From assembly GCA_965541645.1 (NCBI GenBank), contig CBEUCM010000004.1, forward strand, positions 767 to 64,766: a DNA stretch of 64,000 bases. Reading direction: 5' to 3'. The DNA comes from an uncultured Archaeoglobaceae archaeon. Lineage in GTDB: Archaea > Halobacteriota > Archaeoglobi > Archaeoglobales > Archaeoglobaceae. This document shows positions 3,856 to 49,281 of this stretch, one piece after another. Each line of letters opens with the position of its first letter. The first letter of the stretch is position 1. The position numbers and the translations under genes were made by a program. The notes under the pieces were generated by a model. The model made no database searches. It was given only the letters and a program-made list of their open reading frames with translations, and had not been told where the DNA came from.

Positions 3856-4279
3856 ACCACGACCTTAGAATTTGTAGAACAACCCTTCTGGTCCTTTTTC
3901 TGGTATCAAAGTTCACGACAACTATCTGCTGCCATCTTCCGAGGAGGAGCTTCCCCTTCTGGAAGGGTACGATTATCGAGGGACCGACAATCGAGGCTTT
4001 GACATGCCCAGATCCGTTGTCATCTCCCCACGTTTTATGGTGCTCGTAGTGGTCGTCGTAGGGGGCAATTCTCTCCATTATTCGTGGAAAGTCCTTTTTC
4101 AAGCCCGGTTCGTACTCGATTGTGGTTATAGCACCAGTTGATCCGATGTTGAAGACCAACACGGCCCCCTCATCCATTCCGCTCTCCCTCACAAATTCCC
4201 TCACAAACTCCTCAACCTCTGCGGTAATGTCGGCCATATCCCCGAACCCGTCAAGCTCAACCTCAATGAACCTAATCAT
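3842..4279 (-). CDS. YjbQ/UPF0047 family protein
   Basis: GSTGAITTIE, HxHxxxGDDNGSGHVKAS, LGRWQQI. Start moved to ATG 4279, which overlaps the upstream gene. Confidence 0.88.
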   Translation of the reverse strand: MIRFIEVELDGFGDMADITAEVEEFVREFVRESGMDEGAVLVFNIGSTGAITTIEYEPGLKKDFPRIMERIAPYDDHYEHHKTWGDDNGSGHVKASIVGPSIIVPFQKGKLLLGRWQQIVVVNFDTRKRTRRVVLQILRSWYGPE

Positions 4280-4649
4280 CCTCGCACCTCCACATGTAGA
4301 ATGAAAGTCCCCTGTGGTTAATGAGCTTTCCATTGGGGTGATCTCCATAGAGGGGCTTTATAATGCAGTCAGCACCAACCCTTCTTGCCGTGGAAATTAT
4401 TGCGTTGAAGATTTCTGGAGGTGGTCTGAGGGAGTATATGAGTTCTGCCCCCTCGTAGATCTTCAGATTTGGTTTTTGTATGTCATCAACAAAGAAATCG
4501 ACCTTAACATTCCTCTCGACAACGTCGGTTGCCACAACTCTTAGCCCGTTTTCAGCGAGAAACTCTGCAAGCTTGGTATAGTTACCAATACCCACTTCTA
4601 CGACCTTTCCTGAGTAGTTTTTCAGAATGAATTCTGCCAGCCTCAGCAT
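4272..4649 (-). CDS. UPF0146 family protein
   Basis: KVVEVGIG, ATDV, DDI..P...IYEGAELIYSLRPPPE signature. Confidence 0.85.
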   Translation of the reverse strand: MLRLAEFILKNYSGKVVEVGIGNYTKLAEFLAENGLRVVATDVVERNVKVDFFVDDIQKPNLKIYEGAELIYSLRPPPEIFNAIISTARRVGADCIIKPLYGDHPNGKLINHRGLSFYMWRCEDD

Positions 4650-4685
4650 GAATGATTTATATATCTGCGAGTACAGTTAAAATTT

Positions 4686-5135
4686 GTGCAGAGTGTAGTG
4701 ATCAGGGAGTACAGTGTAAGGGATTTCAGGGAGATTCTTGAGATAGAGCAGGAGGCCTTCTCCCCACGAAATCCGGCTTATGACATTTACATCTACCTGA
4801 CCTATGGCAGCGACTTCCTTATCGCAGACGCTGGGGGTAAGATTGCCGGGTACATCGTGACGATGGATGTTGATATTGAAACGGGGAAGATCATAGCCTT
4901 TGCCGTGCGGAAGCAGTTCAGGGGTATGGGAATAGGCAAGATTCTGCTCAAAAATGCAATTGAGAGGCTGGAAGGGAGGGGAAAAAAGAAGATAACGCTG
5001 GAAGTGCGGGCTTCAAACGAGACCGCTCAGAACCTGTATAAAAAATTTGGATTTGAAATCGTTGACATCATTCCGGGTTACTACAGTGACGGTGAGGACG
5101 CCTATCTCATGGTTCGCACAGCTCAGGAACAATAG
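4686..5135 (+). CDS. rimI: RimI/Ard1-like GNAT N-acetyltransferase
   Basis: AVRKQFRGMGIG, LEVRASN..AQNLY..FGF, YYSDGEDAYLM. Confidence 0.85.
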   Translation: MQSVVIREYSVRDFREILEIEQEAFSPRNPAYDIYIYLTYGSDFLIADAGGKIAGYIVTMDVDIETGKIIAFAVRKQFRGMGIGKILLKNAIERLEGRGKKKITLEVRASNETAQNLYKKFGFEIVDIIPGYYSDGEDAYLMVRTAQEQ

Positions 5136-5388
5136 ACTCTATCACTATTCTGAGATTCTCGTTTTCCACGAGATCATCGGGGCTGCGCTCCCTAAAGATC
5201 TCAGAGATACCTCTACACAGCAGGAGAATTGCCTTTTTGTGGTCCGACTTGCTTCTATGGATATGCACGGGCTGAATGCCGAGGTCGTCATAGCTTTTAA
5301 AATGGCCGTTTGCAATGCCTGCGTTCTCGAAAAGCTTTTTAATGTGGAACAGGGTCATGTGCAAGAGCACGATTTCTTCTTTGTGCAT
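5107..5388 (-). CDS. UPF0058 family protein
   Basis: MHKEE..LLH, Y..LGIQPVHIHRSK.DHKKAI..L signature. Confidence 0.8.
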   Translation of the reverse strand: MHKEEIVLLHMTLFHIKKLFENAGIANGHFKSYDDLGIQPVHIHRSKSDHKKAILLLCRGISEIFRERSPDDLVENENLRIVIESIVPELCEP

Positions 5389-5527
5389 GGGACATCACTC
5401 CCTGCAGCATGTACGCAAAACCATTTAAAAAGTTTTCTGGAGCGAGAATGTTGTTAGCAAAGTTTTTATAATGTTTTATTTTTTGAGATCTGGACGGAAA
5501 AAATTTATTCAAAAAATTTGAAATAAA

Positions 5528-5728
5528 TCATCCGCCAGATATTACCCTTATGACCTTCACTTCTCCGTCCTCGGCGACATCATCAACAGGCACAGGCGTG
5601 CCGTTTCTAACAATTACGACAGTCTCAGGGTTGATTCCCAGAGACTCCAGGATATCGGAATACTTTCTCCCCTCTGGCCGTACAACCTCCTCCTTTCTGT
5701 CAAATCCAACAAAGACCATCCTCAGCAT
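5528..5728 (-). CDS. Ubiquitin-like sulfur carrier (SAMP/MoaD/ThiS beta-grasp protein)
   Basis: 66 aa with LGINPETVVIVRNG..VP and a C-terminal VISGG di-glycine. Confidence 0.88.
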   Translation of the reverse strand: MLRMVFVGFDRKEEVVRPEGRKYSDILESLGINPETVVIVRNGTPVPVDDVAEDGEVKVIRVISGG

Positions 5729-5886
5729 TATTCTTCAGGCAGGACCTCTCTGGATATCTCTTTTATGCTTCCTCCACCCGTGACATTCTTTATCTCGGCA
5801 ACCTTCCTTTCAAGCAGCCTCTCATCCTTGCTGAAAAGCTTTCTTAAACCCTTCTTTCGGTATTTCCTCCAGTTGAAACGTCTCAT
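5728..5886 (-). CDS. Small basic hypothetical protein (52 aa; not in the ORF track)
   Basis: Hand-translated MRRFNWRKYRKKGLRKLFSKDERLLERKVAEIKNVTGGGSIKEISREVLPEE. Preceded by GGTGA SD; its stop overlaps the SAMP start (TAATG). Confidence 0.6.
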   Translation of the reverse strand: MRRFNWRKYRKKGLRKLFSKDERLLERKVAEIKNVTGGGSIKEISREVLPEE

Positions 5887-6352: not shown

Positions 6353-7729
6353 TTAAAAGCCTTTGAATTGCTCCCCGATTATGCCATCCAGTATCTGAAG
6401 GAACCTCTCCTCCTCTCCCTTGGGTATTGTCGCTCCTGCCGCAACGCTGTGGCCCCCTCCAACACCACCAACCCTCTCGGCCGCCTTTTTGATGGCCTTG
6501 GCCAAGTGCAAACCTTTTTCCACAAGTCTGTAGTTTGCCCTCGCAGACACCTTTATTCCGTCATCAGTTTGAGCAAAGGCCACTATTGGCTTGGCAGTGT
6601 CTCCCTTGTGGAAGCACATACCTGCAACGATCCCAACGATCGTGTCGGGAATGTTGTTCCCAGCATGAAAGTACCTTATGTGCTTTAGCTCTTCAATTCC
6701 GTTCTCATCAACGAACCTTATTCCTTCGGACAGGTTCCTTCTGTGATTCTGAAGCAGTGTTCTTGCCCTCCGCTTCGCATCTTCATCACCTAAGCAAACC
6801 CTTAGCCCGACCTCTGCCTCGCCATACCTGGCAGTGGCATTGAGGAGGGTCGAGAACTCCATTGCATCCCTGAGTTCTGTACCCTCCGGATGCTGCAGCA
6901 GCAGGTAGCTATCTCCGACAATTCTGAATATGCTTGTGTGTGGTAGGCGGTAGTTCATAGCTGTATCAACAAGGCCAGACACGACCCTTCTTTTCTCATC
7001 TAAGGTCAGCTCTATCCACCTTTTCCATGGTTCAACATCGATACTGGACAGGAACTCAAGGACTCCCCTCTCGTTGCCGGTTATCCCCGGTATTATCGGG
7101 TCAGTGTTGTACTCCAGCATCTTTGCTACAGGCCTCGTTTGTTTGCCGAAGAATCTTAGGTCTCTCACTACCTTCAAAAATCCACCTTTCATGCCGCTTT
7201 TAACGATGACTCTGTTTATCCCCACGAGCTTTCCCAATTTTGAATCCTGCAAATCTCCCACCGCTCCAACCACTGCGAGAGGAAGGAGATCATCGTTTCC
7301 GTTGGCGTAGTCGCTCAGACTCTGTCCCTTTCTCAGGAACTTGGCTACAAAGAAGGTGCATCCCGATCCGCTCAGATCTGTCGTACCATCGTATCCGTAA
7401 TCGTGTGGGTTTAGCTGCCATCTGTGCCTGCTTTGCGGGAGATGGTGATCCGTTATCGCAAATTCCAGACCATTTAGCATGTCAATCTGCCCGCTGCCAA
7501 GGTCTGTGAACCATACAAAAACGTTCTCATCCTTTATTCTTTCAATTTCCCTTTCATCAAGCTGCTTTACAAACCTTATCCTGTTTTCGATCCCCAGCCT
7601 TTCAAGAGCGAGGTGGGCAATTGTCCCCGATGTTATTCCGTCAGCATCTATATGGGTGACGATCAGAACCTCGTCCTGTGCAGCTATCCTCGAAGCAATT
7701 GAGATCGCCCGCCTTTTGAACTCTTCCAC
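6353..7729 (-). CDS. RecJ-like DHH/DHHA1 phosphoesterase
   Basis: HIDADG, FTDLG, DHH, GDLQD and the C-terminal GGGH..AAGA. Confidence 0.9.
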   Translation of the reverse strand: MEEFKRRAISIASRIAAQDEVLIVTHIDADGITSGTIAHLALERLGIENRIRFVKQLDEREIERIKDENVFVWFTDLGSGQIDMLNGLEFAITDHHLPQSRHRWQLNPHDYGYDGTTDLSGSGCTFFVAKFLRKGQSLSDYANGNDDLLPLAVVGAVGDLQDSKLGKLVGINRVIVKSGMKGGFLKVVRDLRFFGKQTRPVAKMLEYNTDPIIPGITGNERGVLEFLSSIDVEPWKRWIELTLDEKRRVVSGLVDTAMNYRLPHTSIFRIVGDSYLLLQHPEGTELRDAMEFSTLLNATARYGEAEVGLRVCLGDEDAKRRARTLLQNHRRNLSEGIRFVDENGIEELKHIRYFHAGNNIPDTIVGIVAGMCFHKGDTAKPIVAFAQTDDGIKVSARANYRLVEKGLHLAKAIKKAAERVGGVGGGHSVAAGATIPKGEEERFLQILDGIIGEQFKGF

Positions 7730-7779
7730 GCTGAAAAGTTGGGAGAAAAAGACTTAAACTTTTTTGCTCAATTTCCTGT

Positions 7780-8436
7780 GTGAGAAGTGCAGTGGTCTTC
7801 TTGGAGGCATCAATCGAGCCCATTCCACGCAGTATATGGCGACATCCGTCGGTGATTGCAGATGCCAGGAGACGGGGTAAAAAACCATCAGAAATTCTGC
7901 TTGACGATTCAAAGCACCACTCTGCAATGAAAAACCTTGAGCACAGGGAAAAGAGGGGCAGACCGGATATAGTGCATCAGTGCCTCCTTCTCCTGCTCGA
8001 CTCTGAAATTGAGGTGGATGTGTTTGTCCACACCATAAGGGGAGATGTAATCTGGATAAACCCTGAAACGCGATTGCCGAGAAATCTAAACCGTTTCGTA
8101 GGTTTAATGGAGGATCTGCTCGTCAGGAAAAGAATAGTGGCTGATGAAGTTACTCTCCTTGAGATTACCGATTTGAAGCTTGAGGACGTGGTTTCTGGAA
8201 AGAGAGTGCTGCTTTTAAAGGAGGGTGAAAAGAGGGAAGAATTGGGGGAACTGCTTTCCGATGACACCGCCATTTGCATTGGTGCCTTCCCGCATGGTGA
8301 CTTCTTCCCCAGCACATTAAAAGCTCTTGAGCCGTACATAACTGTGAGCTTCGGTCCCAAGCCCTACACGAGCCTTTACGTCACGGCGAGGGTGATATGT
8401 GAGTATGAGAGAGTTCGACTTGCTCAGGATTGTTGA
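7780..8436 (+). CDS. nep1: 16S rRNA pseudouridine N1-methyltransferase Nep1
   Basis: LLDDSKHH, RGRPDIVH, RLPRN.NRF.GLME, IGAFPHGDF. Confidence 0.92.
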   Translation: MRSAVVFLEASIEPIPRSIWRHPSVIADARRRGKKPSEILLDDSKHHSAMKNLEHREKRGRPDIVHQCLLLLLDSEIEVDVFVHTIRGDVIWINPETRLPRNLNRFVGLMEDLLVRKRIVADEVTLLEITDLKLEDVVSGKRVLLLKEGEKREELGELLSDDTAICIGAFPHGDFFPSTLKALEPYITVSFGPKPYTSLYVTARVICEYERVRLAQDC

Positions 8437-45541: not shown

Positions 45542-45632
45542 GCAAAAACTGTCCTTTGCAGGTTATTAGAGTTTATGTGCATGAGAACTACAGGATTCAC
45601 CGGCTATAGTTGTTATAATAGTAATTAGATAT

Positions 45633-45714
45633 TTCTTGTGCATGATTATAATTACTATAATGTAATCATTATAATTGTCGTAAAATTTAAATATCCAATA
45701 ATCGTCATTACAAT
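45633..45714. promoter_or_regulatory. Array of ATTATAAT-like boxes around a TATA box
   Basis: ATTATAAT at 45645 and 45668, ATTACAAT at 45707; TTTAAATA at 45686-45693; SD GGAGGTGG at 45716-45723. Confidence 0.5.
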
Positions 45715-45728
45715 TGGAGGTGGTGTCG

Positions 45729-45794
45729 ATGGAGAGGAAGGATAGGAAGGAAGTGGAAGAGACCTTCAAGAGAATCAGACTGTACTTCGGTTGA
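45729..45794 (+). CDS. 21-aa peptide ORF (not in the ORF track)
   Basis: MERKDRKEVEETFKRIRLYFG. Strong SD 5 nt upstream; its TGA overlaps the TTG start of the UbiA gene (TTGA). Confidence 0.55.
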   Translation: MERKDRKEVEETFKRIRLYFG

Positions 45795-46720
45795 AGTTTA
45801 AGATGCAGGATAGTAGAGTACATATCGTTTATAAGCTTCTAAAGTTGGGAGCAACCCCAACAACTCTTGTTTATCCCATACCTTTGATCCCTATTTTTGC
45901 GTGGTTGCTTGCATCGGCTTCTGTCCTTGATCTGTTTGTGGTGGTGGCCTTTGTATCGCTATTTTACAATGCGATAAATCTCTGGAACCACCTAAACGAT
46001 CTTGAGGAAGACCTCGCAGCGGGGAAGAGTGGCTCACAAGTCCTCGTTCAAGTTAGGGATAAGGTAAAAACACTGGTTATTATTTTATATTTGGTTTGTT
46101 TTTTTATTGTGTTGATACAGTCCAAGACACAGTCTGCTGCATTACTGTATGTTGTTGTTGCAGCTGTTACATGGTTATACTCCGACAAAATTTATTTTAA
46201 AAGAATTTCCGGTTTCAGACTTAAGGAGAAATATCAGTGGGAGCTTCTGACATACATTGTTGTACCACCTGCTTTTTTCGCGCTGATCTGGGCTTTGATA
46301 TCGGTTTTCTCGTACAGGGCAATGGCTTTTGTGTCTGTGTCATCGATTTACTATCTCTCTGGAGCGTTGTTGAAAGATCTGAAAGACATAAGTAGTGATA
46401 TGGAGGCAGGGTATGCAACTCTCGCCGTTGTATTCGATCCGCAAATTCTATTTAAGACCTCGTTGCTTCTTAATTTTCTTAACCATGCGCTGATAGTATT
46501 TTTTTCGATGGCTTATTTGCCTATTGGTTGTATTTTTGGATCTCTTACGTTTTTTGTACTGCTCAAGGTTCTACTCGACATGCGTAGATACGGATGGAGA
46601 TTGGGTTCCGAGGTTTACAATACTTTGAAACTGTATCCCTTAGTGTATCCCACATCTTATTTGTTGATGGTCCTCGGAGTGGTGTTTACTCAAGCCTTAG
46701 ACTTACAAGGGTTCTGGTGA
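45791..46720 (+). CDS. UbiA-family membrane prenyltransferase
   Basis: NHLNDLEED, YS...FRLK and KDLKDISSDMEAGYATL motifs with many TM helices. Confidence 0.9.
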   Translation: MKFKMQDSRVHIVYKLLKLGATPTTLVYPIPLIPIFAWLLASASVLDLFVVVAFVSLFYNAINLWNHLNDLEEDLAAGKSGSQVLVQVRDKVKTLVIILYLVCFFIVLIQSKTQSAALLYVVVAAVTWLYSDKIYFKRISGFRLKEKYQWELLTYIVVPPAFFALIWALISVFSYRAMAFVSVSSIYYLSGALLKDLKDISSDMEAGYATLAVVFDPQILFKTSLLLNFLNHALIVFFSMAYLPIGCIFGSLTFFVLLKVLLDMRRYGWRLGSEVYNTLKLYPLVYPTSYLLMVLGVVFTQALDLQGFW

Positions 46721-47966
46721 GGTTAACACAAATGTTCTTTTCGATCTCGCTCAAATACTTCCTCCTAAGGTTTTTTGATGTGTAGGAAGGGTATGAAGTT
46801 ATTATACTGTAAACGTTCTTTTTGGCGGTTAAAAGCTTGTGTATCCTTTCTGCGTACATCAATATGAAGTTCTGGTCTATCGCGGTTAAGTTGTCAGAAA
46901 CTCTCTCAAACTCATCCTTTAAATATTCTATACCCCCTCTTACGATCTCCCCCACGTACAGGGATTCTGGTGAGAATGTATCGAGTTCGAAAAGCGATGG
47001 GTATATTTCTATTGGATACTCCAGCAAACCTAAAGATGCGCCGCCGAAAGTTTCCGTACTTATAAAATATAGTGCATAGGGTGTTGCTGCGGAAAACTTA
47101 CCGTCTTGAAGATCCTGTGAGATGTCATGCCGTTTGGTGAACAACTTTACAGATTCCAAAAACTCGCTTAGTTTCAAGCCGTTGATATGACCAACAGCGA
47201 TCCCTTTCTTTTCCACAAATACCTCTTCTCCTATTGCAAACTCTTTTTTTATAATCTCCTTTGTTTCTTGGATACTTTCTCCTCTTTCAGGCAGCGTGTC
47301 TGTGAAGTCACTTTTCATATCGTTCTGAAAACTTATAACCGTGACCCCACGACCAATCTTCTTACCATTTACAGCAATAACAGGCAGACCATATTTCATC
47401 TTAATCGGAAAAATGTTGAAGGAAATAGCACCGACACCAGCGTCTCTGAATGGTCTGAGCATCCTGTTAATTGGGTATATCAATTCATTCTGGTAGATTT
47501 CTGAAGCTTTTTCAAGCACGCGGTAGGGGTCGGACTTGTAATTGGAGTATAGCCGTTTTAGTTTCAAAATAATTTTAATAGCTTGCAATCTGCTTTTAGG
47601 ATATAGCAGTGGGTATATCAGCATGTTAAATTTACCCTTCTTCATCCTATTCATCTTGCCAACAACTTCGTCTGGAGTACCTTTGAGCACGTGCAGTGTG
47701 TACTCGGTATCTATCAGCAGCAGCAAGCACCCCCTCGTCCAGACAGACTCGGGGGTCATGTACCCCTCAACAGGCATACAGACGGAGTTGCACTCAACGA
47801 GCTTTGAAAAGTCGCCGAAGTTGTTTATCAGGCTATCCGTCAAAAAGAATATTGCCAGGTTTGGTTTGAAGTCAATTTCCTGTATCTTCTTTTTGAGGTC
47901 CTGTATAGCCTCCTTGGCTTTTGGATATGGCGTATAAACGAACCTATACATGTTTTTGAAACTCAC
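46686..47966 (-). CDS. Uncharacterised 426-aa protein, weak FIST-domain-like N-terminus
   Basis: Long ORF coupled to the upstream gene; KPNLAIFF...PVEGYMT...GCLLLLI recalls FIST_N. Family call is tentative. Confidence 0.5.
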   Translation of the reverse strand: MSFKNMYRFVYTPYPKAKEAIQDLKKKIQEIDFKPNLAIFFLTDSLINNFGDFSKLVECNSVCMPVEGYMTPESVWTRGCLLLLIDTEYTLHVLKGTPDEVVGKMNRMKKGKFNMLIYPLLYPKSRLQAIKIILKLKRLYSNYKSDPYRVLEKASEIYQNELIYPINRMLRPFRDAGVGAISFNIFPIKMKYGLPVIAVNGKKIGRGVTVISFQNDMKSDFTDTLPERGESIQETKEIIKKEFAIGEEVFVEKKGIAVGHINGLKLSEFLESVKLFTKRHDISQDLQDGKFSAATPYALYFISTETFGGASLGLLEYPIEIYPSLFELDTFSPESLYVGEIVRGGIEYLKDEFERVSDNLTAIDQNFILMYAERIHKLLTAKKNVYSIITSYPSYTSKNLRRKYLSEIEKNICVNLTRTLVSLRLE

Positions 47967-48288
47967 TTTTTACCGATTCAAGGTCGGTCCTCAACTTGAA
48001 AAGGGATACGTCTTCGTGAGCAAGCACACACAGAATGAGTGTTTTGGATAGGGGATGCAGGATTAGGTGCGAGTTCTGAAGCTGAAACTCAGCCTTTTTG
48101 AAATACCCCATGAAAATGTAGTTTATCAGCACTTCTACCTGGTTCTCAAGCCAGTCTATCACCGATATTATTTTTCGATCCTTGAAGTGGACATAGATAG
48201 GTACACCGTCAACTCGGTATATCCCTGCAAAGAGTACCCCGTCATCGTAAATGAGGGGTTTTAGAATTTCCTCAATCAGCTCCTTCAT
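47944..48288 (-). CDS. Roadblock/LC7-like protein
   Basis: 114 aa; helix-GVLFAGIYRVDGVPI...LILCVLA...LFKLR.DL pattern. Confidence 0.65.
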   Translation of the reverse strand: MKELIEEILKPLIYDDGVLFAGIYRVDGVPIYVHFKDRKIISVIDWLENQVEVLINYIFMGYFKKAEFQLQNSHLILHPLSKTLILCVLAHEDVSLFKLRTDLESVKSEFQKHV

Positions 48289-49073
48289 ACCACTCTCCTT
48301 TTGATTTTCTCTACGTCTTCAGGCGTTATGCAACCCTTCTCGGCCAGCTCCGTCAACTCTTTTTTTGCAAGCTCCGAGAGATTTATCCCGTTGAGGTCGG
48401 GTGTGAACCCTTCTCCCCTTTTTTCCTCTATAACAATACCAACTCCTTCGACAATTCTATATGGGTACACACCATCAGCGTGCCTCGACATTCTGTGCTT
48501 GACAATTCTTAACGTTCTGCTGTACAGCTCTCCAACACCCACATTTTTCAGCTGTATAACGGAGTCAGCAAGGAAAAGCGATATGTTTGACAGCGCACTG
48601 GGCTCACCAATGAATGGCTCTTCGAGTGTTACAAGTGCTGTACCGTACTCTCGTAGAGTCTTGAAAAAGAATCCTACAGATGATCTTGAGCTGTAGTCGG
48701 CAGAAGCAATAAGCGGAGAGAAGGAATCGATAACTATTCTCAAATCTTTACCCCTCACAAATTTGATCAGGTCGCTATCCAAAAATGAGGCATCCTTAAC
48801 GTAAAACTGCCCGATTTTCAGCTGCCCGGTTCTGACGTATTTTTCAAGATCCCAGCCCATCGACTCAGCAATTCTGATAAACTCCTCTTCGGTAAGATCT
48901 ATTGACACATACACTCCCCTTTCACCAGCTTCCAGTCCTTCGAGAAGGTACTGTATTGAGAATATCGTCTTTCCGCATCCCGTTGTGCCAATTAGTGCAT
49001 TAACTGTGTTTTTGACAAATCCCCCGTACAGTAGTTCGTCCAGTCCGAAGACGCCGCTCTGTATTCTTGTCAT
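48285..49073 (-). CDS. KaiC/RAD55-like ATPase
   Basis: IQSGVFGLDELL.GG, intact Walker A GTTGCGKT, VIDS, LADSVI.L, IVKHR.S.H. ATG 49073 preferred over 49097. Confidence 0.9.
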   Translation of the reverse strand: MTRIQSGVFGLDELLYGGFVKNTVNALIGTTGCGKTIFSIQYLLEGLEAGERGVYVSIDLTEEEFIRIAESMGWDLEKYVRTGQLKIGQFYVKDASFLDSDLIKFVRGKDLRIVIDSFSPLIASADYSSRSSVGFFFKTLREYGTALVTLEEPFIGEPSALSNISLFLADSVIQLKNVGVGELYSRTLRIVKHRMSRHADGVYPYRIVEGVGIVIEEKRGEGFTPDLNGINLSELAKKELTELAEKGCITPEDVEKIKRRVV

Positions 49074-49281
49074 GATTATAATTTGATTGCTTATCATTAT
49101 TATAGTTTTTTGTTCTGGGTCTTATATCCTCAGAAATCAGTTTTATCGCTTTTTTTGAGTTATTCGATGGGTAGGAGGGGTTCGTCACAAAAATTGACTT
49201 TTTTGGGTGAAAATCTTGCACTCACTTTTTTGACGATTCGTAGGAAAACTTTTAAATATTGCTGTGTTTTAGCATTCCACA

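Follow-up and report, generated by a model that had tools for sequence, protein, structure and literature searches.

A conserved 21-codon gene tightly coupled to an orphan UbiA-superfamily prenyltransferase gene in Archaeoglobi and Methanoperedenaceae

A 21-codon open reading frame (ORF) in a 64-kb stretch of archaeal DNA (the whole stretch analysed, hereinafter the window) genuinely codes for a protein and opens a two-gene transcript, whose second cistron encodes an orphan membrane prenyltransferase of the UbiA superfamily. The linkage between peptide and enzyme is real and specific, and the pair is inherited with a convergently encoded FIST-like protein, to which a KaiC-like ATPase and an AF0774-like protein are usually added. 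We tentatively propose, with a probability of about 0.4, that the peptide is a putative small trans-acting cytoplasmic partner of the prenyltransferase, serving as a regulator or an assembly subunit.

A protein-coding micropeptide gene upstream of UbiA

The TATA box, the Shine-Dalgarno (SD) sequence, the ATG and the encoded peptide described in an earlier note on this DNA are all present in the sequence (Table 1). The TATA box belongs to the promoter of the joint peptide-UbiA transcript, and the known archaeal spacing between TATA box and start site would place the start of transcription ~12 nt before the peptide ATG. In related loci, a TATA-like 8-mer (at most one mismatch) is located either 39–44 nt before the peptide ATG (30 loci, almost all from Archaeoglobi) or 63–68 nt before it (19 loci, mostly from Methanoperedenaceae). 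An SD-like motif is found 4–15 nt 5' of the peptide ORF in 71 of 74 related loci.

Table 1. Features of the peptide-UbiA locus and its neighbours (positions in the window)
Feature	Position	Strand	Remarks
TATA box TTTAAATA	45686–45693	+	Exact match to the archaeal consensus TTTAWATA; 43 nt before the peptide ATG
SD sequence of the peptide ORF GGAGGTGG	45717–45724	+	5 nt before the ATG
Micropeptide gene	45729–45794	+	21 codons plus stop; ATG 45729–45731, TGA 45792–45794; product MERKDRKEVEETFKRIRLYFG
Orphan UbiA-superfamily membrane prenyltransferase	45803–46720	+	305 aa; alternative start TTG 45791; orthologue of A. fulgidus AF_0771
FIST-like cytoplasmic protein, AF0772 family	46686–47966	-	426 aa; Pfam PF27411; convergent to UbiA, 3' ends overlap by 35 nt
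AF0774-family small protein	47944–48288	-	114 aa; Pfam PF27410 assigned to orthologues
Single-domain KaiC-like ATPase	48285–49097	-	Pfam PF06745, E 9e-43; PDB KaiC, E 6e-46

Each of the 74 assessable species-representative GTDB genomes, which come from Archaeoglobi, Geoglobus and Methanoperedenaceae, has a homologous ORF of 15–31 aa beside its homologous UbiA gene. The ORF is upstream of UbiA in 73 of them and downstream in one, and 70 distinct homologous peptides adjoin UbiA homologues. An alignment-based genome scan was needed to find the UbiA relatives; a scan with the single protein gave none. The earlier note had proposed a search for such an ORF beside homologous UbiA genes, and besides these 74 loci the search finds one in A. 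fulgidus, upstream of AF_0771 (22 aa, MERKDERKEAEKVFKEIKIFAG). The downstream copy, at Mnemosynella locus L077, is a 15-aa version (MKAEEVFKKAVLYGL) with its own SD and with no later gene on that strand. Peptide and UbiA have undergone joint duplication, and the paralogues have tails of their own. Small proteins are routinely missed by annotation: the peptide is absent from all Archaeoglobus annotations checked, including that of the 1997 A. fulgidus model genome, and in Methanoperedens it is annotated only as "hypothetical protein".

Sequence comparison indicates that the peptide is under purifying selection at the amino-acid level. Specifically, dN/dS is 0.03–0.43 in the seven clades where it is estimable, the mean pairwise differences at codon positions 1, 2 and 3 are 0.36, 0.32 and 0.57, and different codons are used in 48% of identical-residue pairs. 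Between Archaeoglobi and Methanoperedenaceae, the 13-residue core of the peptide is 46–49% identical, while the UbiA enzyme is ~34% identical. When a profile of the peptide family is compared with the six frames of the window, this ORF is the sole match (E 4.5e-11; next best 3.9), and in ~0.6 Mb of related loci the profile matches only at the peptide position. The reading of the locus as a chance ORF or a conserved non-coding element is already effectively refuted. Alternative frames do stay open here because the region is rich in purines, but the low dN/dS, the excess of third-position variation, the confinement of the profile matches to this one place and the SD before nearly every ORF all argue against it, as does the finding of neither an Rfam match nor a stable fold.

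Among 1.84 billion (1.84e9) representative proteins, the peptide is never fused to any protein. The long N-terminal extensions of the database proteins P0007, P0008 and P0042 ("GGQKEGGGGF...") were rejected as fusions, being the peptide ORF read in another frame. The earlier note had considered that the peptide might be an in-frame N-terminal extension of UbiA, cut off here by a frameshift or a sequencing error. This alternative does not hold, because a stop codon is present in all loci, no fusions occur, and all three frame relations between peptide and UbiA are seen, with the same frame in 18 of 74 loci.

The peptide family is defined by the motif K-x-[AV]-E-[EK]-x-F-K-x-[VI]-[RK]-[LI], followed by a hydrophobic/small tail of 3–5 residues. 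The sole invariant residue of the 74 peptides is E10, with F13 kept in 68 and K14 in 69; in a distant locus, L083, Gln replaces this Glu. The match always ends at a free C-terminus, 3–5 residues after the conserved [LI]. The conserved residues are located at fixed distances from the stop codon (approximately -12, -8, -7 and -3), with an N-terminal part of variable length, and the last three residues and the stop codon itself are variable. No Tyr, Trp, Cys, Ser or Thr is invariant, and Cys occurs in three peptides. The aromatic C-terminus emphasized in the earlier note is common but not conserved: Tyr, Trp or Phe is found in 64 of 74 tails (Tyr or Trp in 32), and 10 tails, such as GAA, GAV, VVS and CAG, are free of aromatic residues. 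The peptide is highly charged and contains no membrane-spanning segment, and no signal sequence on it is visible by eye.

Junction of the two genes

The stop codon of the peptide had been proposed in the earlier note to overlap a TTG start codon of UbiA. The TTGA overlap is present (TTG 45791–45793), but ATG 45803 is more likely to be the UbiA start, judging from homologous sequences. Specifically, the database copy of the protein (P0001, 100% identical) has 305 aa and so begins at this ATG, 8 nt after the peptide stop, and 58 of the 74 related loci likewise have UbiA beginning with an ATG located at the peptide stop or shortly behind it. The tight coupling of both ORFs holds with either start. 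Across the 74 loci, the distance from peptide stop to UbiA start has a median of ~11 nt and is typically ~0–16 nt, or the two overlap, as with the TAATG or TGATG found in eight loci; gaps of 40–83 nt are found in ~10 loci. The UbiA gene has an SD of its own in only 13 of the 74 loci.

Some of the long gaps contain a TATA-like box, possibly a separate UbiA promoter, although these matches are unconvincing because the gap regions are AT-rich. Several loci have T-runs behind the peptide stop, such as T8 in M. nitroreducens. The junction region has no Rfam match at E up to 1, and no stable RNA structure spans the junction (z = 0.10); a structured-RNA or riboswitch reading was dropped on these grounds. 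Metatranscriptome contigs of M. nitroreducens, for which strand is undirected and depth is not quantitative, span the peptide region, and the only RNA runs for the window are flagged "DNA?".

The prenyltransferase and the conserved cassette

The UbiA protein matches Pfam PF01040 over residues 38–261 with 38 bits, compared with a cut-off of 34.2 (E 1.4e-9), and the small margin suggests a divergent member of the superfamily. The catalytic motifs are preserved, with N66xxxD70xxxD74 and D196xxD199xxxD203 invariant in 21 members of the family. The AlphaFold2 model (pLDDT 93.8) has an all-helical multi-pass membrane fold, which Foldseek matches with a probability of 1.0 to DGGGPS, UBIAD1, ApUbiA and AfUbiA. 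The best PDB matches of the model are DGGGP synthase structures 6m31 and 7bpu, with TM of 0.65–0.75 and only 13–14% identity. A profile of the UbiA family likewise finds DGGGPS in the PDB (E 7e-6), followed by chlorophyll a synthase (E 7e-4), while a PDB sequence search with the UbiA protein alone gave nothing usable. None of the NCBIfam models of named UbiA enzymes reaches its cut-off; the DGGGPS model is not hit, and the MenA model NF004751 reaches 20.7 bits where 264 would be required. On the MenA score and the low identity to DGGGP synthase, the earlier note's alternative of an enzyme that groups with lipid or quinone prenyltransferases is not borne out. In the UbiA family, the Asp-rich motifs and the mouth of the cavity lie on the cytoplasmic side, to which the active site opens when unliganded (PMC4106721).

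The FIST-like gene is present in 76 of 81 loci, and among loci whose downstream sequence is long enough only one lacks it. In all 76 it runs convergently to UbiA, with overlapping 3' ends in 69. The AF0774-like gene and the KaiC-like ATPase gene are found in 60 and 58 of the 81 loci, respectively. The peptide, UbiA and the FIST-like gene are all retained even in Methanoperedens paralogue loci without KaiC and AF0774. In an unbiased census of neighbours in the 81 loci, only the UbiA, FIST-like, AF0774-like and KaiC-like families recur, and no protease, exporter or receptor kinase is conserved near the pair.

The AlphaFold2 model of the FIST-like protein (pLDDT 87.3) matches the FIST domain of FBXO22 with a Foldseek probability of 1.0 and E 2e-5, with TM of only 0.36–0.49, and the matched FBXO22 structures are complexes with BACH1 bound. 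Distant orthologues have a weak match to Pfam FIST, and the UniRef name of one orthologue is "FIST domain-containing protein". A PDB sequence search with the 426-aa protein gave nothing usable, and the 114-aa AF0774-like protein has no match in a local Pfam copy or in PDB sequences. We found no paper describing a micro-ORF with a UbiA gene, nor any on AF0771, AF0772 or AF0774 in an archaeal context or on ANME2D_00927 to ANME2D_00930. The peptide, UbiA, the FIST-like protein, the KaiC-like ATPase and the AF0774-like protein form a compact, testable cassette. Of the partners of this orphan prenyltransferase, which is common to the sulfate-reducing Archaeoglobi and the methane-/alkane-oxidising Methanoperedenaceae, the peptide is the most constant, and it is therefore a concrete handle on the function of the enzyme.

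Possible roles of the peptide and related systems

In the proposed partner reading, ribosomes that finish the peptide would re-initiate on UbiA, so that peptide and enzyme are synthesised jointly and the peptide is in surplus. The charged N-terminal part would stay cytoplasmic, and the conserved core (the invariant Glu, F-K and [RK]-[LI]) would bind the cytoplasmic face of the enzyme, where the active site opens. The short hydrophobic tail, with its fixed length of 3–5 residues and free C-terminus, may dip into the membrane interface or the mouth of the cavity. The FIST-like and KaiC-like proteins may tune the action of peptide and UbiA in response to a signal, and the peptide would not be a secreted pheromone. 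An action in trans that is tied to UbiA is suggested by the downstream copy in L077, the gaps of 40–83 nt, the paralogue loci without KaiC and AF0774, and the joint duplication of peptide and UbiA. There is precedent in the PDB for UbiA-family enzymes in complex with other proteins, namely HMGCR-UBIAD1 (8djk) and chlorophyll a synthase (chain C of 9sau and 9sas). Such a partner would represent a new mode of control for membrane isoprenoid chemistry.

Some observations run counter to a partner role. An obligate subunit would be expected to be fused to its enzyme somewhere, given that the two share a frame in 18 of 74 loci, yet there are zero fusions among the representative proteins. A tail that is strictly short and ends freely suits a substrate or a nascent-chain regulator no less well. 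For the last 14 residues, the hydrophobic moment does not significantly exceed that of shuffled sequences (median shuffle fraction 0.21), so we do not rely on an amphipathic helix.

The peptide could instead be the substrate of the enzyme, which we regard as rather unlikely. UbiA would transfer an isoprenoid onto the candidate acceptor, yielding a peptide anchored by its lipid at the cytoplasmic face of the membrane, and the site would be a tail aromatic residue where there is one or, in broader terms, a carboxylate, either that of the invariant Glu or that of the free C-terminus. Consistent with this, the linkage of peptide and enzyme is without exception in the 74 assessable representative loci and extends to their duplication, the peptide is never fused, and its match always ends at a free C-terminus a few residues past [LI]. 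The strong SD on the peptide and the lack of one on the enzyme are as in precursor/enzyme pairs and imply an excess of peptide. Moreover, the enzyme falls in no known acceptor class, and its active site would face, and when unliganded open to, the cytoplasm (PMC4106721). The tails contain Phe, Tyr or Trp in most peptides, and chlorophyll a synthase is the second-best PDB match of the family profile. Chlorophyll a synthase is a UbiA-family enzyme that esterifies a carboxylate with a prenyl diphosphate. On the other hand, the tail has no conserved nucleophilic side chain, since fewer than half of the tails have Tyr or Trp and 10 have no aromatic residue; the invariant Glu becomes Gln in L083; and no leader protease or exporter is conserved nearby. 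We know of no UbiA-family enzyme that accepts a peptide.

The prenylated peptide proposed in the earlier note stands in part: the linkage is real and the results that the note named as refuting it are absent, but its Tyr or Phe acceptor has no positive support, and no acceptor residue is conserved. Its lipopeptide signal is disfavoured, because the protease, exporter and receptor kinase needed for a secreted signal are not conserved nearby and the peptide has no visible signal sequence. A fuller version, in which UbiA prenylates the tail, the C-terminal carboxylate or, as in chlorophyll synthase, the invariant Glu as an ester, so that a charged peptide is lipid-anchored at the inner membrane face and the FIST-like/KaiC-like proteins act as sensor or regulator, seems to us unlikely. 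A peptide substrate would be the first in the UbiA superfamily, and archaea would gain their first ribosomal lipopeptide system with a defined genetic basis. It would also open a new class both of enzyme-peptide chemistry and of protein lipidation in archaea.

The ORF might also be a cis-acting leader peptide, a reading that we find doubtful. The nascent chain, possibly with a bound metabolite, would stall termination from within the exit tunnel and control re-initiation on, or transcription read-through into, UbiA, and the released peptide would be functionless. In favour of it, the ORF precedes UbiA in tight coupling at 73 of 74 loci, UbiA usually has no SD (61 of 74), the whole peptide (19–31 aa) would fit within the exit tunnel, and T-runs follow the stop in several loci, including T8 in M. 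nitroreducens. In addition, the fixed distances of the conserved residues from the stop codon, with a variable N-terminal length, resemble TnaC-type arrest peptides. Against it speak, on few loci, the L077 copy (one lineage), which comes after UbiA on a strand where no further gene is left to regulate, and the long gaps in ~10 loci, together with the variable last three residues and stop codon and the lack of RNA structure across the junction. The conservation across two classes, above that of the enzyme itself, is judged unusual for a leader peptide. To our knowledge, no regulatory arrest or leader peptide has been described in archaea, and an arrest peptide here would be the first.

It is very unlikely that the peptide serves mainly the FIST-like and KaiC-like proteins, as a ligand, adaptor or inhibitor, and is adjacent to UbiA only because the cassette moves together. 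The FIST-like gene is as constant as the peptide, and the FBXO22 structures that it matches hold bound BACH1, but the peptide always lies on the side of the UbiA transcript, its translational coupling is with UbiA rather than with the FIST or KaiC genes, and it persists where KaiC and AF0774 are missing.

Several known systems share features with the peptide-UbiA pair. In the ComQXPA quorum-sensing system of Bacillus, ComX is likewise a small ribosomal peptide encoded beside a dedicated prenyltransferase, ComQ. ComQ has a soluble polyprenyl-synthase fold rather than the nine-helix UbiA membrane fold, and its gene comes before comX. The acceptor in ComX is an invariant Trp, the peptide undergoes processing and export, and a receptor kinase is part of the cluster. 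The archaeal peptide, in contrast, has no invariant acceptor residue, and no exporter, protease or kinase is conserved with it. The cofactor precursors PqqA and MftA resemble it as peptides of ~20–30 aa that are first in their operon, have a conserved Glu and carry their function near the C-terminus. PqqA and MftA clusters carry radical-SAM and peptidase genes, whereas the neighbour census finds no such genes here.

TnaC, SecM, SpeFL and ErmCL are similar in being short coupled upstream ORFs with conserved residues at a fixed distance from the end, but the present peptide is kept even downstream of the enzyme, in L077, and is conserved across two classes. The DGGGPS of M. jannaschii (6m31/7bpu) is the nearest solved structure and has the same UbiA fold and Asp-rich motifs, although at the low identity given above; we know of no micropeptide or FIST partner for DGGGPS genes. 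Parallels to a partner role are cyanobacterial chlorophyll synthase ChlG with HliD/Ycf39 and human UBIAD1 with HMG-CoA reductase, in both of which a UbiA-fold enzyme is complexed with a regulating or pathway-coupling protein, and both types are among the PDB matches of UbiA. Those partners are membrane proteins (HliD has one helix) and are not encoded by coupled upstream micro-ORFs, whereas the present peptide is highly charged, has no membrane span, and is co-transcribed and co-translated with its enzyme.

The micropeptide gene upstream of UbiA

The elements described in the earlier note, namely a TATA box, an SD, a 21-codon ORF starting with ATG and a TTGA overlap at its stop codon, are all present in the window. 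That note placed the UbiA start at the overlapping TTG. The TTG does overlap the peptide stop, but ATG 45803, 8 nt past the stop, is the likelier start, because the database copy of UbiA has 305 aa and because most relatives start with an ATG at or just past the peptide stop. Whichever start is used, the two ORFs are tightly coupled.

Features of the micropeptide locus, with counts from the neighbour census
Feature	Position in window	Strand	Detail	Loci in census	Basis
TATA box	45686-45693	+	TTTAAATA		window sequence
SD	45717-45724	+	GGAGGTGG		window sequence
Peptide ORF	ATG 45729, TGA 45792-45794	+	21 codons, MERKDRKEVEETFKRIRLYFG		window sequence
TTG	45791	+	overlaps peptide stop (TTGA); opens 309-codon ORF ending at 46720		window sequence
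UbiA	45803-46720 (likelier start)	+		81	census
FIST-like protein	46686-47966	-	400-450 aa	76	census
AF0774 family	47944-48288	-	~115 aa	60	census
KaiC-like ATPase	48285-49097	-	single-domain	58	census

We compared 79 species-representative GTDB loci, A. fulgidus loci and two distant metagenomic loci, using a peptide profile built from clear examples. A homologous short ORF lies directly upstream of UbiA in 72 GTDB loci, in the window and in A. fulgidus, where its sequence is MERKDERKEAEKVFKEIKIFAG and the TAA stop shares bases with the UbiA ATG. The short ORF is also present in locus L047. In the Mnemosynella locus L077 (UbiA identity 28%), a 15-aa peptide, MKAEEVFKKAVLYGL, with a strong SD is encoded at 4967-5014, between UbiA and the convergent FIST-like gene and thus downstream of UbiA, unlike in the other assessable loci. 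Homologous UbiA genes do carry the short ORF: it is present in 74/74 assessable representative loci, as well as in A. fulgidus. Five GTDB loci were left out as unassessable: three with the UbiA N-terminus cut off, one with 43 nt of upstream sequence, and L029, whose contig begins inside an apparent peptide end, "RIKIFF". Of the two distant loci, L083 encodes a diverged peptide, …AAQEIFEKTKMFGV, and in L084 none is detectable. The profile finds the peptide in the 64-kb window with an E value of 4.5e-11, versus 3.9 for the next-best hit, and has no other match in the window or elsewhere in the fetched loci.

The 70 distinct peptides are 15-31 aa long. Their ORFs differ pairwise at codon positions 1, 2 and 3 by 0.36, 0.32 and 0.57 on average, 48% of same-residue codon pairs differ, and dN/dS, estimable in seven clades, ranges over 0.03-0.43 (synonymous sites are saturated in Geoglobus). 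The region matches no Rfam family and has no stable RNA fold. Between two archaeal classes the 13-residue core is 46-49% identical, compared with ~34% for the enzyme. Comparative analysis at the sequence level shows that the short ORF is a real, conserved, protein-coding micropeptide gene, and that it is a chance ORF or a non-coding element is extremely improbable. The coupled short ORF reported in the earlier note is thereby confirmed, on much stronger grounds than a single sequence allowed.

The peptide consists of a Lys/Glu-rich N-terminal stretch of variable length, a core (K-x-[AV]-E-[EK]-x-F-K-x-[VI]-[RK]-[LI]) and a tail of three (56 peptides), four (17) or five (one) residues. The sole invariant residue among the 74 peptides is a Glu (E10 of the window peptide), while F13 and K14 are conserved in 68/74 and 69/74, respectively. 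The tail is hydrophobic or small, with Gly or Ala as the final residue in 51/74. Its first residue is Phe in 28, Tyr in 22, Trp in nine, Gly in nine, Gln in three and another residue in three. Tyr or Trp occurs anywhere in the tail in only 32/74, and ten of the 74 tails have no aromatic residue. Of the proposed upstream ORF ending in an aromatic motif, the ORF is kept in all assessable representative loci and the aromatic ending is not.

A word-index search of 5.8e9 proteins returned 156 peptide relatives (E up to 10). Among the matches listed (120 of 156), all have 29-62 aa without a Pfam domain, and the only names are "hypothetical" or "uncharacterised". Searching 1.84e9 representative proteins exhaustively with HMMER gave 38 relatives of 29-52 aa, in which the match is always C-terminal, and no fused peptide. 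The Archaeoglobus peptides are too short for any gene call. A literature search found no paper on the micropeptide; the family and its five-gene cassette are undescribed.

Expression signals and coupling to UbiA

A TATA-like box is located 39-44 nt upstream of the peptide ATG in 30 loci, nearly all from Archaeoglobi, and 63-68 nt upstream in 19 loci, mostly from Methanoperedenaceae. An SD precedes 71/74 peptide ORFs but just 13/74 UbiA genes, even counting weak ones. The gap from peptide stop to UbiA start has a median of ~11 nt; the two codons overlap by one base in eight loci, and gaps of 40-83 nt occur in ~10. All three frame relations are seen across loci and the stop codon is present in every one, so the short ORF is not an in-frame N-terminal extension of UbiA. 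The UbiA transcript opens with the peptide cistron, and the two ORFs are translationally coupled. From these signals we infer that most UbiA translation is by ribosomes coming directly from the end of the peptide ORF. Metatranscriptome contigs of M. nitroreducens, which carry no strand or quantitative information, span the peptide region.

Several loci show local peculiarities. In the window, the 187 bp that separate the divergent pyrK-like and peptide genes (45542-45728) are AT-rich, as are the upstream regions of Archaeoglobus relatives, and contain several 12-17 nt direct and inverted repeats of ATTATAAT-like units, which could be an operator array. In M. nitroreducens ANME-2d (L039, 3948-3975), a T8 run lies 12 nt past the peptide stop, one metatranscriptome contig ends 18 nt beyond the stop, and assembler depth, an unreliable measure for contigs, falls ~10-fold across the 5' portion of UbiA; transcription may partially terminate between peptide and enzyme. 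In one Archaeoglobaceae clade (L004, L006 and L008, ~3920-4060), the UbiA frame has no ATG, GTG or TTG from the peptide stop to the conserved N-terminal helix, and in L007 of the same clade the sole candidate is a TTG five codons upstream of a conserved Pro. In these four loci the database UbiA ORF starts 7-13 nt upstream of the peptide ATG, so that the entire peptide ORF lies within it in a different frame; the frame under purifying selection is that of the peptide (dN/dS 0.05). Candidates for UbiA initiation there are dual coding, re-initiation at a non-canonical codon and frameshifting. In L073 (3966-4010), an apparent 1-nt deletion at the UbiA start (ATGCTGG versus ATGTGCTGG in relatives) shifts the frame, reflecting either a pseudogene or an error of assembly.

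The UbiA enzyme and the conserved cassette

The large ORF encodes a divergent UbiA-superfamily protein (Pfam PF01040, 38 bits; cut-off 34.2). Scores against NCBIfam models of named enzymes all fall far short of the cut-offs (MenA, 20.7 versus 264), and the protein does not group with a known lipid or quinone prenyltransferase. A plain sequence search of the PDB gave no match; the family profile finds M. jannaschii DGGGP synthase (E 7e-6), chlorophyll a synthase (7e-4) and UBIAD1 (0.02). The AlphaFold2 model (pLDDT 93.8) superposes on DGGGPS, UBIAD1, ApUbiA and AfUbiA, with identities of 13-18%. Both Asp-rich motifs are invariant across the family, and the enzyme is therefore probably active. 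Homologues occur only in Archaeoglobi (Archaeoglobus, Geoglobus, Mnemosynella) and Methanoperedenaceae, including GoM-Arc1. The A. fulgidus orthologue, AF_0771 ("uncharacterized protein"), is distinct from the crystallised AfUbiA.

An unbiased census of ORFs neighbouring UbiA recovered only four conserved protein families, UbiA itself included, and no conserved protease, transporter, kinase or radical-SAM gene. The structural model of the FIST-like protein (pLDDT 87.3) matches FBXO22 at its FIST domain; the name FIST domain-containing has been given to one orthologue, and a weak Pfam FIST match is seen in distant ones. The FIST-like gene is convergent to UbiA in 76/76 loci and absent from only one locus among those with enough downstream sequence. 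The 3' ends of the two genes overlap in 69/76, usually by 4 nt and by 35 nt in the window (46686-46720), which implies overlapping antisense 3' ends of the transcripts. The peptide gene belongs to a fixed cassette. A second Methanoperedens paralogue lacks KaiC and AF0774, yet retains the other three members (peptide, UbiA and FIST-like).

In L083 and L084 the cassette is rearranged with its gene set unchanged: the strand of the KaiC-like and AF0774-like genes is the reverse of that in the window, which makes them divergent from the FIST-like gene. Two genes are split in A. fulgidus DSM 4304 (L081, AE000782): that of the FIST-like protein (6898-8114; ORFs of 349 and 62 aa) and, upstream, that of a PAS sensor (3859-5735; ORFs of 546 and 54 aa). 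Each is a single ORF in strain DSM 8774 (405 and 625 aa), and the 1997 sequence probably has frameshifts or sequencing errors at both places.

Possible roles of the peptide and its paralogues

The earlier note proposed that UbiA prenylates a C-terminal Tyr or Phe of the peptide to make a lipopeptide signal. None of the outcomes that the note named as refuting this idea was observed. Neither the modification nor the signalling role is supported, because the aromatic residue is not conserved and the cassette gives no hint of export or of external-signal sensing. We tentatively favour, with a probability of about 0.4, a peptide that acts in trans as a partner or regulator of the enzyme. The swapped gene order in the single lineage of L077, the loci with long peptide-UbiA gaps and the persistence of the peptide where KaiC and AF0774 are absent argue for this role, as does the UbiA active site, which faces the cytoplasm (PMC4106721). 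The lack of any fusion argues against it, and the amphipathicity of the peptide is not significant. Absence of fusion would instead suit a prenyl acceptor of UbiA, a possible but doubtful role. The free C-terminus, whose spacing from the core is fixed, the probable production of the peptide in excess and the orphan status of the enzyme point the same way, and chlorophyll synthase, a UbiA-family enzyme that esterifies a carboxylate, provides a precedent. However, no acceptor side chain is conserved, and the Glu is replaced by Gln in L083.

Somewhat less probable still is a cis-acting nascent-chain regulator, for which the constant spacing between conserved residues and the stop would speak, as would the tight coupling; the L077 gene order, the long gaps and the variability of the last residues do not fit it. 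That the peptide works with the FIST and KaiC proteins is unlikely. The micropeptide fits three known kinds of system, namely leader peptides, precursors of the RiPP type and small-protein partners of membrane enzymes, but it matches none of them. Proof that UbiA uses the peptide as a substrate would make the system categorically new.

In Methanoperedens, two paralogous peptide-UbiA-FIST modules occur within single genomes (pairs L034/L062, L038/L069, L075/L068, L074/L064 and L058/L072). Their tails mostly track the paralogue: ...LG[AF][AG] in the copy with KaiC and AF0774, with the exception of L058 (...LWFL), and ...[LM]WxW/F in the copy without them.
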